A stretch of 25,707 nucleotides of DNA, taken from positions 1 through 25,707 of the forward strand of contig JBLHHE010000001.1 of assembly GCA_047616465.1 (NCBI GenBank), read 5' to 3'. This document shows, one piece after another, positions 18,292 to 25,707 of the stretch. The DNA comes from Alphaproteobacteria bacterium. Lineage in GTDB: Bacteria; Pseudomonadota; Alphaproteobacteria; UBA6615. Numbering within the stretch: the first letter of the stretch is position 1; the number at the start of each line of letters is the position of its first letter. A program made the translations under genes and the position numbers. The notes under the pieces were generated by a model. It was not told where the DNA came from. It did not search any database and saw only the letters and a list, made by a program, of their open reading frames with translations.

Positions 18292-18852
18292 CTACCCCGC
18301 GCCATTCGCGGCGAGCCAGGAAACCGCATCGGCCAGCGAGCCGACCAGGGCATCGGCCTTGGTATGTTCCGGCGCTTCGTCGGAATCCACCAACAGCTTT
18401 TGCCCGACGCCGGCGCTGATCGCCGCTTCAATGTCGGTCTCCCGGTCGCCGACCATGGCCGACGCCGCCAAGTCGAGGCCCAGCGCCTCGCGCGCCTTGA
18501 ACAGCATGCCCGGACCCGGCTTGCGGTCGATCGATTCTCTTTTATAGATGCCGATCCCTTCTTCGGGGTGGGTCGGCGCGTGAAACACCCGCGCAATATC
18601 AATGTTCTGATCCGCGAACCGCGCGCACATCCATGCGGTCAATTTCTGAAAATCATCTTCGCTGAACAGCCCGCGGCCAATGCCCGCCTGATTGGTGATG
18701 ACAACCAGATGGTAGCCCAACGTCCGGGCCTGCCGGCACGCGTCGAACACCCCGTCGCGGAAGATAAAGTCTTCGGGCCGCCAAATGTAGCCAACATCGA
18801 CATTGATGACGCCATCGCGGTCGAGGAACAGCGCTTTTTCGCCCGCCGCCAT
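18292..18852 (-). CDS. gmhB: D-glycero-D-manno-heptose 1,7-bisphosphate phosphatase-like HAD phosphatase
   Basis: ALFLDRDGVINVD, VVITNQAGIGRG, RKPGPGML, MVGDRETDI. Confidence 0.85.
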   Translation of the reverse strand: MAAGEKALFLDRDGVINVDVGYIWRPEDFIFRDGVFDACRQARTLGYHLVVITNQAGIGRGLFSEDDFQKLTAWMCARFADQNIDIARVFHAPTHPEEGIGIYKRESIDRKPGPGMLFKAREALGLDLAASAMVGDRETDIEAAISAGVGQKLLVDSDEAPEHTKADALVGSLADAVSWLAANGAG

Positions 18853-18855
18853 GAC

Positions 18856-20529
18856 TTAATCCGCGTTTGCCGCCGCAACCCGCTCGCGCATCTGCGTGAG
18901 CGTTATGTTGCTGGACAATAATTCTTCGCTGACGATCAGTTCGATCACCGCCGGACCGCCGGCGGCCAGGGCGCGCTCGAAGGCCGGGGCGAACTGCTCG
19001 GTGGTCTCGACCCGCTCGCCGCTGGCGCCGAACGATTTCGCCCAATCGACAAAGTCCGGGTTGACCAGATGGGTCGCCGGTGACCGCCCGGGATATTCGC
19101 GTTCCTGATGCATGCGGATGGTGCCGTACATGGAATTGTTGGCAATAATCAAAATGATGCCGAGATTATGGCGCATGGCCGTGGCCAACTCGTTGCCGGT
19201 CATCAAGATGCCGCCATCGCCGGCGTAGCAGATCACCGTTGCCTCAGGCCGCGCCACCTTGGCGGCGACCGCCGCCGGCATGCCATATCCCATGGCGCCG
19301 TTGGTCGCGCCCAACAATGTGCGGTAGCTGTGGAACGGAAAGTACCGGCCCGCCCAGCCGGCAAAATTACCGGCATCGGTGGTAAGGATCGTGTCTGCCG
19401 GCGCTAAATCGCGTAAATCGTGAAAGATCTTAGCCAAATCGAGCGGTCCCGGGGTCGCCGCGGGGATACGCCACGCCTCATAGTCGGCCCGCGCGGCCTG
19501 GGTCCAATCGTCCCACGCCGATGTATCGGCCTGCTGGCTTTGCCGGGCGGCCGCGACGAACGACGCAACCCCGGCGTTTATCGCCAAATCGGGCTGGTAG
19601 ACCCGCCCCAACTCCTCGGGGTCCGGGTAGATATGAACCAGTCCTTGGGCCGGATTGGGCGCCGACAACAGCGTGTAGCCCTGCGTCGTAATCTCACCAA
19701 GCCGCGCGCCAATAACGATCAACAGATCGGAGTCGCGCACCCGCTGGGCAAGCTTCGGGTTGGTGTTAATGCCCACCTCGCCGGCATAATTGGGATGGCG
19801 ATTGTCGATGATATCCATAGCCCGAAACGATGTGGTGACCGGCAGATTATTGGCCGCCGCGAAGGCCTCCAAATCGGTGCCGGCCTGCGCCGACCAGCCC
19901 CCGCCGCCAACCAGGACCAGCGGGGTACGCGCGGCCTGCAGCATCTCGCGAAGCCGCGCCATATCGCCCTCGCCCGGCTGCGCCGCAACGGGCTGGAAAG
20001 CGGGCGTGTCGGCAATCTCGAGCAGATCGGTCAGCATATCTTCCGGCAAAGAGACAACGACCGGGCCGGGCCGTCCCGAAACGGCGGTCGAAAATGCCCG
20101 CGACACGATTTCCGGCAACCGGGCGGCATCGTCGACCTCGACCACCCACTTGGCCAGCGGCGCAAACATCGCTTCATAGTCGACTTCCTGAAACGCTTCG
20201 CGACCGCGAAAGCCGCGCGGTATCTGGCCAACGAACATCACCATCGGCGAGGAATCCTGCAGGGCGGTATGAACGCCGATGCTGCCGTTGCACGCCCCGG
20301 GCCCGCGGGTGACAAACGTGACACCGGGCTTGCCGGTGAGCTTACCGTAGGCCTCGCCCATGAACGCGGCGCCGTTTTCGTGCCGGCATGTGATGACGGA
20401 TATGGCGTCTTCGGCATCGTGCAATGCATCGAGCACAGCCAGGTAACTTTCTCCGGGGACGCAAAACACCGTATCGACGCCGTGCACCTGTAGGGCGTCG
20501 ACTAAAACCTGACCACCTGTACGTTTCAA
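18856..20529 (-). CDS. Thiamine diphosphate-dependent enzyme (acetolactate synthase large subunit-like)
   Basis: VPGESYLAVLDAL, CRHENGAAFM, VTRGPGACN, FQEVD, GAMGYGMPAA, ThDP motif GDGG...NNSMYGTIRMHQE. TTG start follows GGGAGG. Confidence 0.93.
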   Translation of the reverse strand: MKRTGGQVLVDALQVHGVDTVFCVPGESYLAVLDALHDAEDAISVITCRHENGAAFMGEAYGKLTGKPGVTFVTRGPGACNGSIGVHTALQDSSPMVMFVGQIPRGFRGREAFQEVDYEAMFAPLAKWVVEVDDAARLPEIVSRAFSTAVSGRPGPVVVSLPEDMLTDLLEIADTPAFQPVAAQPGEGDMARLREMLQAARTPLVLVGGGGWSAQAGTDLEAFAAANNLPVTTSFRAMDIIDNRHPNYAGEVGINTNPKLAQRVRDSDLLIVIGARLGEITTQGYTLLSAPNPAQGLVHIYPDPEELGRVYQPDLAINAGVASFVAAARQSQQADTSAWDDWTQAARADYEAWRIPAATPGPLDLAKIFHDLRDLAPADTILTTDAGNFAGWAGRYFPFHSYRTLLGATNGAMGYGMPAAVAAKVARPEATVICYAGDGGILMTGNELATAMRHNLGIILIIANNSMYGTIRMHQEREYPGRSPATHLVNPDFVDWAKSFGASGERVETTEQFAPAFERALAAGGPAVIELIVSEELLSSNITLTQMRERVAAANAD

Positions 20530-20691: not shown

Positions 20692-21651
20692 TTGAATACA
20701 TGCATACCTAATGCGAGTTTTTCCTTGGCCGACTTCCCCACCTCTCCTGCAAAACCAACAATTTACATTGTCGGAAACCAGCCCCTCCCCGAGGCGTTGC
20801 TCGACGTGTACCCGAAATGGGCGCGCCGGTTCGATCATAGATCGACGGCGATCGTACCGGTCGCCGCGCCTTCGGAGTCCGATGCCACCTGGTATCAGCG
20901 TTTCACCGAATTCCTGCGCGACGAATATCACGCCGTTGGCGCCGTTATGGCGTCGCAAGCCACGCCGCTGTTCGAACATGCGCGTCACTTGTTCGATGGG
21001 TTCGACGATGATGCGGAATTGTTGGGCGAGATCGGCGTTGCGGTTCGTGCGCCGGGCACCCTAACCGCCCGGTCACCGGCAAAGATTGCGGCCCAGCAGG
21101 CTTATGAACATACATTCGGGGACGATAGCGACCCGTCGGAAATCCTTATCATCGGCGCCACAGGGCCGGCCCGCGCCTTGGCCTTGGCGTTGAGTAATTC
21201 TGCCGGCGCTTCCAATCCGCGGCGCGTCTGCCTCACCACGCTCGACGGCAAATCGATGACCGATATGCGCCAGCGCGTTGCCGAATTGCCCGAAGACAGG
21301 CGTCCCACGCTGCGCCATATCCAGTCTCAATTGGAACATGACCGGCTGGTCACCTTGTTGCCACCGGGAAGCCTGGTCGTGAACGCCACCGGGCCAGCCG
21401 ACGAAGATACCCCCTCACCGGTCGGCTCGGCCGCTCTGTTCCCGCAAAACGGCCTGGTCTGGGATATCGATGCGGTCGGCATCAGTTCCCCTTTTCTCGA
21501 CAAGGCCCGGCAGCAACGGCGCGAGCGCGGCCTGCGTTTAGCCGATGGGCCGGTGTTTCACCAGTATCAATGGCTTGCCGCGGCCACCGCAATTTTTGGC
21601 GCGACGCCAACCCCGGCCGACACCCAAGAAATGCTGAAGCAGATCGGGTAA
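20692..21651 (+). CDS. Divergent shikimate-dehydrogenase-like Rossmann protein
   Basis: ILIIGATGPARALA, GSLVVNATG, GLVWD, LADG in AroE-like order and length (~320 aa). The catalytic motifs are degenerate. The TTG start is uncertain. Confidence 0.6.
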   Translation: MNTCIPNASFSLADFPTSPAKPTIYIVGNQPLPEALLDVYPKWARRFDHRSTAIVPVAAPSESDATWYQRFTEFLRDEYHAVGAVMASQATPLFEHARHLFDGFDDDAELLGEIGVAVRAPGTLTARSPAKIAAQQAYEHTFGDDSDPSEILIIGATGPARALALALSNSAGASNPRRVCLTTLDGKSMTDMRQRVAELPEDRRPTLRHIQSQLEHDRLVTLLPPGSLVVNATGPADEDTPSPVGSAALFPQNGLVWDIDAVGISSPFLDKARQQRRERGLRLADGPVFHQYQWLAAATAIFGATPTPADTQEMLKQIG

Positions 21652-21812: not shown

Positions 21813-22718
21813 CTAAAGATACTTGGCGTACCATTCGAGGACCTCGACCTTCTGAATTTCGTGCAATTCGGGATTGGTCATGTAGTAGGAATCGTAGTGC
21901 TGGGCATTGGGAATCTTGAGCAGTTTCTTAGGCTCGCCCAGGGCTTCATAACATTCGAGCTGCTCGGCCACCGGCACCAACATGTCGAACTCGGAATAGA
22001 CCATCAGCACTGGCCGCGGCGAGATGTGGCCGGCGACCCATTCCGGCTTGAACCGCCAGCACGCGGCGGCGCTTTCCAAATCATATTCCGGGTTGAACCG
22101 GTGGTCCTGGGAATGGAAATTCGCGATCACGTCGGCGGTATGGGGGTCGAGCAACATGATCTCACCCAGTGGCGCGGTGGTTTTCTCGCCGGTTAACACG
22201 CGCTTGCGCTCGGCCTCTTCGACCTGCGCCTTGAAGGCCTGCCACTCGTGGGGCCGCCGCACACTGCGCATCCAGCGCTCGCCGTCCGACACCATCACCG
22301 CCGAGACGATCACCTTGACGCGCTCATCGAAGGCGCCGCACCAGATAGCGTTGGCGCCGCCCCAGCTGGAGCCGTAATAAGCGATCCGCTCGGGATCGAC
22401 GCCATCGATGGTCTCGAGATAGGTCACCGAATCATAGGTTGCCTGCGCCTGCTCCAAAGGGCGATGACGGCCGCGTTCGCCCTCGCTGACGCCAAATCCC
22501 GGATAGTCCCAGGACAGCACGAAATAGCCCGCCTCCCACAGCCATTGGGGCACATCCATGCCGTAGACATCTTTCATGCCGCTATAGCCGTGTAGGCAGA
22601 CGATGGCAGGCCGGGCGGCGTCGCCGGGTTTCCAGTCCTTCGGCCGATAGAGGAACCCGGCGATTTTCCGGCCATCGGAGTAATATTCGACTTCGTCCCA
22701 AACCTTTTCGCGCGCCAT
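21813..22718 (-). CDS. Serine alpha/beta hydrolase
   Basis: AIVCLHGYSG, WDYPGFGVSEG, VDPERIAYYGSSWGG nucleophile elbow, YSEFDMLVP (acid), AQHYD (His). SD GAGGGG. Confidence 0.88.
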   Translation of the reverse strand: MAREKVWDEVEYYSDGRKIAGFLYRPKDWKPGDAARPAIVCLHGYSGMKDVYGMDVPQWLWEAGYFVLSWDYPGFGVSEGERGRHRPLEQAQATYDSVTYLETIDGVDPERIAYYGSSWGGANAIWCGAFDERVKVIVSAVMVSDGERWMRSVRRPHEWQAFKAQVEEAERKRVLTGEKTTAPLGEIMLLDPHTADVIANFHSQDHRFNPEYDLESAAACWRFKPEWVAGHISPRPVLMVYSEFDMLVPVAEQLECYEALGEPKKLLKIPNAQHYDSYYMTNPELHEIQKVEVLEWYAKYL

Positions 22719-22756
22719 CGGTCTTCCCCTCATCCGTTATTTTCTTTTATTGTCGT

Positions 22757-23647
22757 TCAACCGAGCGATACGTACCAGTCGCGCAATGCGCTGCCGATAT
22801 CGTCGGGCGAATCCTCCTGGGGATGATGCAGGCCGCGCACCGAGACTTCCGTCTGGTTGGGCCAACTGCGAATGATCTCCAGATCGCGCTCGAATATAAT
22901 CTGGCCCGGTTCGACGTTGATAAACAATTTGGGCAGCCTGTTTTCCGCCATCCACACGGCGAGACCTTCCACGATCTCGGCTACGTCCTTGGGATCGCCC
23001 GCAACCGGTATTTGCCGCGGCCAGGTCAGGGTCGCGCGGCGCCCTTCGCCGGCTTGAGCATAGGGGCGGCGAATTTCCGCCATGGTTTCGGCATCGATGT
23101 CGCGCATCACCCCGGCGGTGAAAATTTTCTCGACGAAGAAATTCTCTTCGAGCACCAATTGCTCGCCCTCGGGGCCGCGCAAGAGTTGCAGCATAGCGCC
23201 GACCGCATCGGGGTAGTCGTCGTAGCTGGCGTGATCGCACACCAAGGTCTCGCAGTGCGCCAGTCCCTTGATCGCCAGGGGATGGCGCCGCGCCCAGGTC
23301 AGGCCCAGCGGACCGCCCCAATCGTGCATCACGAACGTCACATTGTCGCTGACACCGAGCGCCTCCAGGGTGGCGTCAATAAACGTCTGGTGCTCTGCCA
23401 GGGTGTAAGCATCGGGTCCGGAATGTTCCAGCTTGGCGGAATCGCCCTGACCGATATTGTCGATGGCGATCAGCCTGCCCCTGCCCGACAGATAGGGCAT
23501 GATATTGCGCCACATATACGACGAGGTCGCATTGCCGTGCAGGAAGACCACCGGATCGCCTTCGCCCTCATCCGTATACGCCATGGCGTGACCGTGAACC
23601 TCGACGGTTTTCTTTTCATACGGCATGGCCGCGCTGATCGTCGTCAT
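22757..23647 (-). CDS. Haloalkane dehalogenase-family protein, paralog 2 (HLD-II / LinB-like)
   Basis: HGNATSSYMWRN, VMHDWG, HCE, TLTWPRQIP, GLHHPQEDSP. ATG 23647 follows GAGGA. Confidence 0.9.
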   Translation of the reverse strand: MTTISAAMPYEKKTVEVHGHAMAYTDEGEGDPVVFLHGNATSSYMWRNIMPYLSGRGRLIAIDNIGQGDSAKLEHSGPDAYTLAEHQTFIDATLEALGVSDNVTFVMHDWGGPLGLTWARRHPLAIKGLAHCETLVCDHASYDDYPDAVGAMLQLLRGPEGEQLVLEENFFVEKIFTAGVMRDIDAETMAEIRRPYAQAGEGRRATLTWPRQIPVAGDPKDVAEIVEGLAVWMAENRLPKLFINVEPGQIIFERDLEIIRSWPNQTEVSVRGLHHPQEDSPDDIGSALRDWYVSLG

Positions 23648-23672
23648 TTCGGTTTCCTCGTTAATATCAATA

Positions 23673-24554
23673 TCATAGCCCCCGATACCATTGCGCCAAC
23701 CCCTGCCCGATTTCGTCGGGCGAGTCTTCCTGGGGGTGGTGCAGCCCCGGCACAGTGATCGTTGTCTGATTGGGCCAGGACCCGATGATATCGAAGTCCC
23801 GACCGAACACGATCTGTCCCGGATCGGCGCGGATAAACAGCTTCGGTATATCGTTACCGGCCATCCAGGCGGCCTGGCTTTCGACCAGGTCGGAGACGTT
23901 TTTCGGCTTGCCCTCGATGGGAATTTCACGCGGCCAGGTCAGGGTCGGCCGCCGGTTCTCGCCATCTCCCTCATAGGGACGCCGGATTTCGGCCATGGTC
24001 TCGGCATCGACCTCGCGCATGACCCCGCCGGTAAATATCGCCTCAACGAAGTAGTTATCCTCGATCACCAGTTTTTCGCCCTCGGGTCCGCGCACCTTGC
24101 GCAAGCGCTCGCCATGACCGTCTGGATATTCGTCATAGGAGGGATGGTTGCGCACCACGATTTCGCAATGGGCGAGCCCCTTGATGCGGTCGGGATGGGC
24201 GACGGCCCAGGTCAGGCCCAACGGTCCGCCCCAATCGTGCATCACCATCGTGACATTATCACCGACATCCAAAGCTTCCAGCGCGCCGTCGAAATAACCC
24301 TGATGTTCAGCCAGGGTGTACGAGCCGGGGCCAGAATCGGGCAGCTTGTCGGAGTCTCCCTGGCCGATATTGTCGATGGCGATGAGCCGCCCCGCGCCCT
24401 CTAGGTGAGGCATGATATTGCGCCACATGTAGGACGAATTGGCGTTGCCGTGAACAAACACGATGGCATCGCCCTCGCCGACATCGACATAGGCCATCTG
24501 CCGGCCCTGCACGGTGAGTTTCTGTTTGGGGTAACGCATCTTCGAATCGATCAT
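23673..24554 (-). CDS. Haloalkane dehalogenase-family protein, paralog 1 (HLD-II / LinB-like)
   Basis: HGNANSSYMWRN, VMHDWG, HCE, TLTWPREIP, GLHHPQEDSP. Start at 24554 aligns with paralog 2 (24539 possible). Confidence 0.9.
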   Translation of the reverse strand: MIDSKMRYPKQKLTVQGRQMAYVDVGEGDAIVFVHGNANSSYMWRNIMPHLEGAGRLIAIDNIGQGDSDKLPDSGPGSYTLAEHQGYFDGALEALDVGDNVTMVMHDWGGPLGLTWAVAHPDRIKGLAHCEIVVRNHPSYDEYPDGHGERLRKVRGPEGEKLVIEDNYFVEAIFTGGVMREVDAETMAEIRRPYEGDGENRRPTLTWPREIPIEGKPKNVSDLVESQAAWMAGNDIPKLFIRADPGQIVFGRDFDIIGSWPNQTTITVPGLHHPQEDSPDEIGQGLAQWYRGL

Positions 24555-24726
24555 TCTTGCACTTCCGTTTAGGGTGACGCGCCGCAATCAACGACTTTTC
24601 CGGGGTTGCACGCAACCGTCCCCCCGCAGGGCTGCTTTGCGCGTTTGCCACTTTATCGCGCCCATGTTCGTGATAGGGTCCGCCGCGCGGACGATAGACT
24701 GATAGGCAGGCAAACGGATTTTCGAC

Positions 24727-25140
24727 ATGGCGGAACATCTCCACCACGTACACTTTTTTACCGAAGACATCGACGCCACCATCGCCTGGTGGCGCGACAT
24801 GCTGGGCGGCGAGGTTATTTATGACGGCGACTTCGGCGGCGCGCGTAATGTGTTCATGCGCGTCGGCAGCGGCCGGCTGCATCTCTACGAGCAAAAACCG
24901 CGCGACGAAGGTAGCGGCGCCGTGCACCATGTCGGCATCCGCACCGACGATCTGGCGGCCCTGGAACAGCGCCTGCGGGCCGCCGGGGTGGGGTTTCGCA
25001 GCGGTATCCGCGATTTCGGCGCCTGGAAGTACATCATGTGCCCGGCGCCGGATAACGTGCTGCTCGAACTCTTCGAGGTCGATGCGAGCCAGTTGGAGGG
25101 CGGCGCGGCTGAATATTTCGGCGACATGCCGGCCGCCTGA
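24727..25140 (+). CDS. VOC (glyoxalase/bleomycin resistance/dioxygenase) family protein
   Basis: LHHVHF...VHHVGIRTDDL...PDNVLLELFE metal-ligand pattern, 137 aa. Confidence 0.88.
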   Translation: MAEHLHHVHFFTEDIDATIAWWRDMLGGEVIYDGDFGGARNVFMRVGSGRLHLYEQKPRDEGSGAVHHVGIRTDDLAALEQRLRAAGVGFRSGIRDFGAWKYIMCPAPDNVLLELFEVDASQLEGGAAEYFGDMPAA

Positions 25141-25170: not shown

Positions 25171-25707
25171 GTGACCTCTACGCGCGAAATCGCGCGGCCG
25201 ACCGGCCGCCCCTCGATCGTTTTGCTCGGCGCCCTGGCGGCGTCCGGGCCCTTGGCGTTGAGCATTCATGTTCAGTCGATACCGGCGATCGCGCTGGAGA
25301 TGGGGACCAGCTACACATCGGCCCAGCTCACCGTGTCACTGTTCCTGATAACCTTTGCCTCGGCGCAACTTTTCATTGGCCCGCTGTCCGACAAGATCGG
25401 CCGCCGCCCGGTTATCTTCGGCGGTCTCATTCTGCTGGGCATCGCCAGCATTGGCGCCACCTTCGCGCCCACAATCGAGTTGCTGATCGTGGCGCGCATT
25501 CTCCAGGCGCTCGGCGGTTGCGCCACCCTGGTGGTGCCGAGAGCCATCGTGCAGGACATCTACTCCGGCTCGCAAGCCGTCCGCATGATGGCGTTGGTGG
25601 CGATGATCCAATCGATGGCGCCGCTGACGGCGCCAATCATCGGAGGTGTCCTCGACGCCTTCTTCGGCTGGCGCGCGATCTTCGCTTTTCTGGCGGTCTT
25701 CACCGGA
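25171..25707 (+). CDS. Bcr/CflA-family MFS efflux transporter (3' part runs off the window)
   Basis: Manual translation from GTG 25171: AQLTVSLFL, GPLSDKIGRRPV (MFS motif A), ARILQALGGC, RAIVQD, APLTAPIIGG, GWRAIF. Confidence 0.9.
   Translation, partial: MTSTREIARPTGRPSIVLLGALAASGPLALSIHVQSIPAIALEMGTSYTSAQLTVSLFLITFASAQLFIGPLSDKIGRRPVIFGGLILLGIASIGATFAPTIELLIVARILQALGGCATLVVPRAIVQDIYSGSQAVRMMALVAMIQSMAPLTAPIIGGVLDAFFGWRAIFAFLAVFTG

Follow-up and report, generated by a model that had tools for sequence, protein, structure and literature searches.

Tandem HLD-II-like genes with alanine in place of a conserved proline in an uncultured alphaproteobacterium

Introduction

Haloalkane dehalogenases (HLDs) serve as a model for how enzymes evolve and can be engineered, with HaloTag and Renilla luciferase (RLuc) as examples. 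A hallmark of the HLD-II branch is a Pro directly after the halide-stabilising Asn (the HGNP motif), and this one residue reportedly decides whether the alkyl-enzyme of RLuc8 stays trapped or is hydrolysed. The catalytic His–Glu pair serves the hydrolytic second half-reaction only, and HaloTag traps the alkyl-enzyme owing to its mutated catalytic His. Here we describe two adjacent genes for HLD-II-like paralogs (copies A and B) in which that Pro is Ala. They lie in a stretch of 25,707 nt (the window), which is the whole of a 25.7-kb contig (JBLHHE010000001.1) from a 75%-complete metagenome-assembled genome (MAG) of Alphaproteobacteria UBA6615 (assembly GCA_047616465.1).

The residues His142, Ser145, Val146–Val147, Asp162 and Phe261/Phe262 have been described as marks of ABH-fold luciferases, with His142 and Val146–Val147 present in luciferase-active enzymes and absent from typical dehalogenases (bioRxiv 10.1101/2025.09.13.676034). 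One active-site mutation of RLuc yields an enzyme with dual activity (PMC12059646). A sequence-only reading of the window had suggested that the two proteins may not dehalogenate at all, acting instead as luciferase-like enzymes or as natural HaloTag-like covalent traps. On balance, our analysis favours a different view, that both genes encode catalytically live, hydrolytic members of a distinct, divergent and uncharacterised HLD-II sub-branch, because of their equivalog scores, their identity to HanR and LinB, a LinB-like structural model and their invariant catalytic residues. Their chemistry may still differ from that of textbook dehalogenases.

Results

Family membership and catalytic residues

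Both proteins scored well above the 241-bit cut-off of the NCBIfam haloalkane dehalogenase equivalog NF002938 (copy A, 336.5 bits; copy B, 344.6 bits). An AlphaFold2 (AF2) model of copy A (pLDDT 93.2, pTM 0.93) matched LinB, DmbA, HanR and the reconstructed AncLinB-DmbA in Foldseek with TM scores of 0.94–0.97 (0.96–0.97 for LinB and DmbA) and root-mean-square deviations of 1.1–1.2 Å, so that profile, model and structural comparison all placed an alpha/beta-hydrolase core with a helical cap, similar to HLD-II over its full length.

The catalytic pentad was described as intact in the sequence-only reading, and we located every member: N37, D107–W108, E131 and H272 in copy A, and N39, D109–W110, E133 and H274 in copy B. 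Each copy thus has the complete HLD-II triad (the Asp nucleophile in HDW, the His base and the Glu acid after strand beta-6) together with the halide-stabilising Asn of HGN and Trp of DW. In copy A numbering, N37, D107, W108, E131 and H272 were invariant across a 109-sequence alignment of the clade. The hallmark Pro was the exception, with Ala found in its place in both copies, at the positions and in the motifs that had been reported (Table 1).

Alanine at the proline site as a clade signature

To place this substitution we consider the best 120 database relatives (60–85% identical) together with the two window copies. Within this set of 122, the Pro site was occupied by Ala in 120, by Val in one and by Thr in one, and never by Pro, and the catalytic Glu was kept in all 122. 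The 51 clade genes fetched as DNA used all four Ala codons (GCC in 22, GCG in 15, GCA in nine and GCT in four, with a single ACC for Thr). Near-fixation of Ala across four synonymous codons argues that the residue is held by selection and not merely inherited.

The Ala is accompanied by other clade motifs. AIDNIGQG stands against the canonical APDLIGMG, HDWGG[PT][LM]G against HDWGSALG, and GLHHPQED against GLHFIQED; PGQI occurs at LinB position 247/248, with Gln247 common to the clade, and an invariant Gly177 replaces Leu177 of LinB. We also considered whether His129, Cys130 and His273 form a metal site and rejected this, as positions 129 (H/Y/F) and 130 (C/S/A) vary within the clade.

Most of the 150 sequences taken to represent clusters at 50% identity have the Pro, and HGNA was confined among them to RLuc-derived entries and P0175. 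The clade had no full-length representative of its own in that search; only the fragment P0192 showed its motifs, carrying AIDNIGQG with the HGN motif outside its alignment. The clade has apparently been merged with canonical LinB-like clusters at 50% identity. Synthetic RLuc, RLuc8 and HaloTag fusions were abundant among the representatives (P0154–P0172, P0206–P0214 and others) and make HGNA and the His-less GLNLLQED look more common in nature than they are. Six further representatives of 500–860 aa (P0123, P0134, P0135, P0148, P0153 and P0250) matched the dehalogenase query in two stretches, which may reflect fusion or duplication of HLD domains.

A common occurrence of HGNA among characterised active dehalogenases would have spoken against the sequence-only interpretation. 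None of the characterised or solved proteins that could be read (LinB, HanR 4BRZ, AncLinB-DmbA, HaloTag/DhaA, AncHLD-RLuc, AncFT and Anc238Loc) has HGNA; all have Pro, and the HGNPTSS ascribed to LinB and DhaA was indeed found in LinB and in HaloTag, which derives from DhaA.

Phylogeny and the two copies

In a maximum-likelihood tree of 63 sequences (supports given as paired values), the HGNA clade, hereafter clade 1, was recovered with support of 100/100. It joined a sister clade, clade 2 (95/94), with support of 98/92, in a position near LinB and HanR. RLuc grouped with P0243 and P0155 (100/94), distant from the window proteins, and the Pro-to-Ala change in clade 1 is thus convergent with that in RLuc. 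The earlier caveat that the proteins resemble LinB (~49% identity) more than RLuc (~43%) is also correct.

The two copies are 67% identical to each other. Copy A fell within a group of A-type genes (87/93) and copy B within a group of B-type genes (98/92), both drawn from across genomes, which dates the duplication to before these MAG lineages diverged. The proposal that the Ala predates the duplication and has been kept is supported by these separate groups and by the conservation described above. Fixed differences between A-type and B-type proteins cluster at residues 129–156, 176, 203, 208 and 242–251, in cap and tunnel regions, which suggests that the two copies probably take different substrates.

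A sister clade without the catalytic Glu

Clade 2 comprises about 120 or more database clusters, and our counts are from 120 relatives. Here the Pro site holds Ile (92), Val (27) or Leu (1), the catalytic Glu is replaced by Gln, and the region of the catalytic His reads GLHY[VC]HED. The DNIGQG loop co-occurs with the missing Pro in both clades. Members still score 360–368 bits on NF002938, and their hosts are Rhodospirillales, Nitrospinota, Dehalococcoidia and Devosia MAGs (loci L046–L079, e.g., L047:6995-7879 and L054:6992-7867). Clade 2 is probably mis-named as haloalkane dehalogenase, and the lineage of clades 1 and 2 as a whole has loosened the canonical catalytic apparatus.

In five of these loci (L048, L049, L051, L055 and L056) the Gln-clade gene adjoins a canonical HGNP dehalogenase gene that shares about 40% identity with it, with the motifs QDWGAALG/HDWGAALG and G/AKHYxQED, making another kind of tandem pair. 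A further Pro-less group (P0133, P0139 and P0141; 415–547 aa) has an N-terminal extension and the motifs HGD[V/L/I], AVDLIGAG and GLHWTPED, with Asp for the halide-stabilising Asn; its position beside the two DNIGQG clades is moderately supported (80/89).

Locus and gene neighbourhood

Genes A and B are co-directional and separated by 25 nt, with a GAGGAA ribosome-binding site for B. The third alpha/beta hydrolase that follows them matched Pfam Hydrolase_4, Abhydrolase_1 and Peptidase_S15; it fell beneath all NCBIfam cut-offs, its match to the UilS lactonase family was weak (125.6 bits, under the 400-bit cut-off), and it matched PDB 7qjm (4.7e-53). The VOC protein gave only weak PDB matches, and a promoter and terminator scan returned background level only.

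Table 1 Coordinates of the paralogs, their diagnostic residues and conserved neighbours in the window
Feature	Position	Strand	Description
HLD-II-like paralog A	23673..24554	minus	293 aa; HGNANSS, AIDNIGQG, HDWGGPLG, AHCEIVV, GLHHPQED; A-type group of clade 1
HLD-II-like paralog B	22757..23647	minus	296 aa; HGNATSS, AIDNIGQG, HDWGGPLG, AHCETLV, GLHHPQED; B-type group
Ala38 codon gcc, copy A	24441..24443	minus	Conserved-Pro site (LinB Pro39, RLuc Ala54), by alignment
Ala40 codon gcg, copy B	23528..23530	minus	Read from sequence
DNIGQG loop, copy A	24357..24374	minus	Canonical DLIGMG
His272-His273-Pro274, copy A	23733..23741	minus	Catalytic His, then clade-specific His-Pro; canonical H-F/Y-I/L
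Third alpha/beta hydrolase, esterase or lactonase-like	21813..22733	minus	306 aa; 23 nt downstream of copy B; conserved HLD partner
VOC/glyoxalase-fold protein	24727..25140	plus	137 aa; divergent from copy A; conserved partner
Bcr/CflA-type MFS efflux transporter	25171..25707	plus	Cut by contig end; conserved partner

All 37 genomic loci with a protein at least 64% identical came from MAGs of uncultured marine Alphaproteobacteria or 'Rhodospirillaceae' (one labelled Proteobacteria only), none from a cultured strain or plasmid. In about 28 of the 37, in different MAGs, the MFS and VOC genes lie divergently beside HLD_A (and HLD_B, where present) and the third hydrolase, as in the window. A plasmid collection held no clade member, its best match being LinB (49.6%), and genomic loci, plasmids and PDB together yielded none from cultured organisms or solved structures. 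No canonical HGNP dehalogenase was found in the 75% of the genome recovered here.

The HLD–hydrolase arrangement is often followed by a pair of genes for a thiamine diphosphate (ThDP) enzyme and a GmhB-like phosphatase. In the window this pair occupies 18292–20529 (minus strand), with the ThDP enzyme (PRK08199 family, 835 bits) and then, after 3 nt, the GmhB-like HAD-IIIA phosphatase; it is kept downstream of the HLD–esterase genes in many loci, and in some genomes an aldolase–SDR fusion intervenes (L042:9711-11804). A 319-aa open reading frame at 20692–21651 (plus strand) had no Pfam match and only faint shikimate dehydrogenase-like similarity; it keeps its place in related loci at 32–36% identity in most relatives and at most 78% in the closest genomes. 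Three public sequencing runs, labelled ice metagenomes, contained at least 88% of the sampled words of 21813–24726 and may represent the source sample; no RNA run was among the public runs listed as containing this segment.

Discussion

A proposed live but remodelled active site

In these proteins the Asp nucleophile, the water-activating His–Glu pair and the Asn/Trp anion site are kept, and the most likely reaction would be covalent SN2 attack followed by hydrolysis. Strict conservation of the Ala together with the rewritten DNIGQG loop suggests co-adapted remodelling. The Pro-to-Ala change would then be one element, along with DNIGQG and HDWGGP, of a remodelled loop behind the anion/oxyanion site and not an isolated knock-out of hydrolysis. 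The backbone NH of Ala, which Pro lacks, could be bound by the side chains of the newly acquired Asn and Gln.

Conserved polar residues (His273, Gln247, Tyr140, Tyr143 and His137) occupy pocket positions, and the invariant Gly stands at the tunnel mouth, where LinB has Leu177. A polar pocket with an open tunnel suggests that the natural substrate is non-classical, larger or more polar than simple haloalkanes. The HLD pair may work with the co-transcribed esterase/lactonase-like hydrolase, beside the VOC protein and the efflux pump, and such a locus would fit a role in detoxifying or catabolising organohalogens of the sea or similar electrophiles.

Several observations weigh against a hydrolytic role. 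Gln replaces the catalytic Glu in all 120 clade 2 relatives, and the whole lineage may therefore be leaving hydrolytic chemistry. The bifunctional ancestors that we could read (AncHLD-RLuc, AncFT and Anc238Loc) all have Pro. The neighbourhood genes name no substrate, and genes further out are housekeeping. In RLuc8, Ala at this site reportedly blocks hydrolysis of the alkyl-enzyme, and A54P is said to restore it.

Alternative interpretations

A neofunctionalised lineage is a possibility that we take seriously while thinking it unlikely: clade 1 and its Gln-bearing sister would both have left hydrolytic dehalogenation, for example for RLuc-like, cofactor-free oxygenation or for lyase or transferase chemistry with a polar marine metabolite as substrate. 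The loss of Glu in clade 2, the rewriting of several near-universal HLD motifs and the convergence of Pro-to-Ala with RLuc all favour it. So do two marks in copy A that go beyond the luciferase-like proposal as first made: copy A and A-type orthologues carry His129 and Val133–Val134, equivalent to RLuc His142 and Val146–Val147. Yet His129 is Tyr in B-type orthologues and the residues of the coelenterazine pocket are absent, with PGFF replaced by PGQI in both copies (the missing aromatics had already been noted), Trp153 and Trp156 by Tyr140 and Tyr143, and Ser145 by Ile or Thr, and with no clear equivalent of Asp162. Moreover, the clade groups with LinB, HanR and DmbA and not with RLuc, and its gene context suggests no oxygenase substrate.

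More speculatively, the DNIGQG super-clade (the HGNA clade and the HGN[I/V]/Gln clade) may have abandoned hydrolytic dehalogenase chemistry in a second, bacterial departure that parallels the origin of Renilla luciferase, with loss of the conserved Pro as the shared first step, towards an O2-dependent or other non-hydrolytic reaction on a marine metabolite; we hold this doubtful. The HGD[V/L/I] group joined this super-clade in the tree at the support given above.

That the two proteins are ordinary haloalkane dehalogenases, in which the Ala and the motif changes are neutral and which act on standard substrates as LinB or HanR do, seems improbable. Such enzymes would have the complete pentad, the LinB-like fold and the NF002938 scores that we observed, and to our knowledge the A54P effect has been measured only in RLuc8. 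A neutral site, however, would not hold Ala in 120 of 122 proteins over four codons without reversion to Pro; nor would this reading account for clade-specific polar residues at pocket-lining positions or a sister clade without the catalytic acid.

A HaloTag-like trap or pseudoenzyme, limited to single-turnover alkylation without release or to mere ligand binding, is highly improbable: Gly177 does match the tunnel-opening C176G change of HaloTag, but His272 and Glu131, the residues of the second half-reaction, are invariant in the clade (the pair was present in all 122 proteins) whereas HaloTag has a mutated His, two paralogs that share a conserved operon with a further hydrolase fit metabolism, and it is hard to see what an oligotrophic bacterium would gain from a stoichiometric suicide protein. 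The precedent for such a trap is RLuc8, in which the alkyl-enzyme was reportedly trapped with Ala at this position (Chaloupkova et al. 2019).

A large natural clade has fixed Ala on a LinB-like scaffold and has a sister clade that also lacks the catalytic Glu. The two clades form a natural experiment on loop control of the hydrolytic step. For hundreds of database entries the label 'haloalkane dehalogenase' is putative, and it is doubtful for the Gln clade.

Comparison with known systems

The closest natural solved relative is that of PDB 4BRZ/4C6H from a marine Rhodobacteraceae (346.8 bits, ~54% identity, E 1e-102), with the reconstructed AncLinB-DmbA just behind (343.7 bits). The entries are titled only 'Haloalkane dehalogenase', and we take the protein to be the HanR of Novak et al. 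2014. It shares with the window proteins the same pentad, an equal loop length after the catalytic Glu and a model TM score of 0.94–0.95. Its motifs HGNPMSS, APDLIGMG, HDWGSGLG, AFMEAI and GLHFIQED are, in contrast, each replaced.

LinB (Sphingomonas/Sphingobium) and DmbA/Rv2579 belong to the same HLD-II sub-branch (48–50% identity, TM 0.97) and have the same Asp–His–Glu triad and Asn/Trp pair. Where LinB has Pro39, the window proteins have Ala; in the same way Leu63 becomes Asn, Met66 Gln, Ser111-Ala/Val112 Gly-Pro, Phe273–Ile274 His-Pro, position 247 Gln, Leu177 Gly, and Trp140 and Phe143 Tyr.

HaloTag shares the chemistry of the Asp nucleophile, and its tunnel-mouth Gly176 (the C176G change) aligns with Gly177. 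It differs in both of the features at issue here: its GLNLLQED has no catalytic His and its HGNPTSS retains the Pro, whereas the window proteins have His and Glu and lack the Pro.

RLuc, a coelenterazine 2-monooxygenase derived from HLD-II, reads HGNAASS, and RLuc8-type database constructs read HGNATSS, the latter identical to the copy B motif, as had been noticed. Shared features are the Ala that follows the Asn binding halide or O2, a His at the second position ahead of the catalytic Glu and an L9 loop longer by one residue; the region around that Glu reads H-C-E-I-V-V in copy A and H-C-E-T-L-V in copy B, the Val-Val dyad being limited to copy A. RLuc differs in belonging to a separate clade and in having PGFF, Trp153/Trp156 and Ser145, and the window genes lie in a bacterial operon. 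The resemblance to RLuc is therefore limited to the catalytic-Glu region and the Asn-Ala pair.

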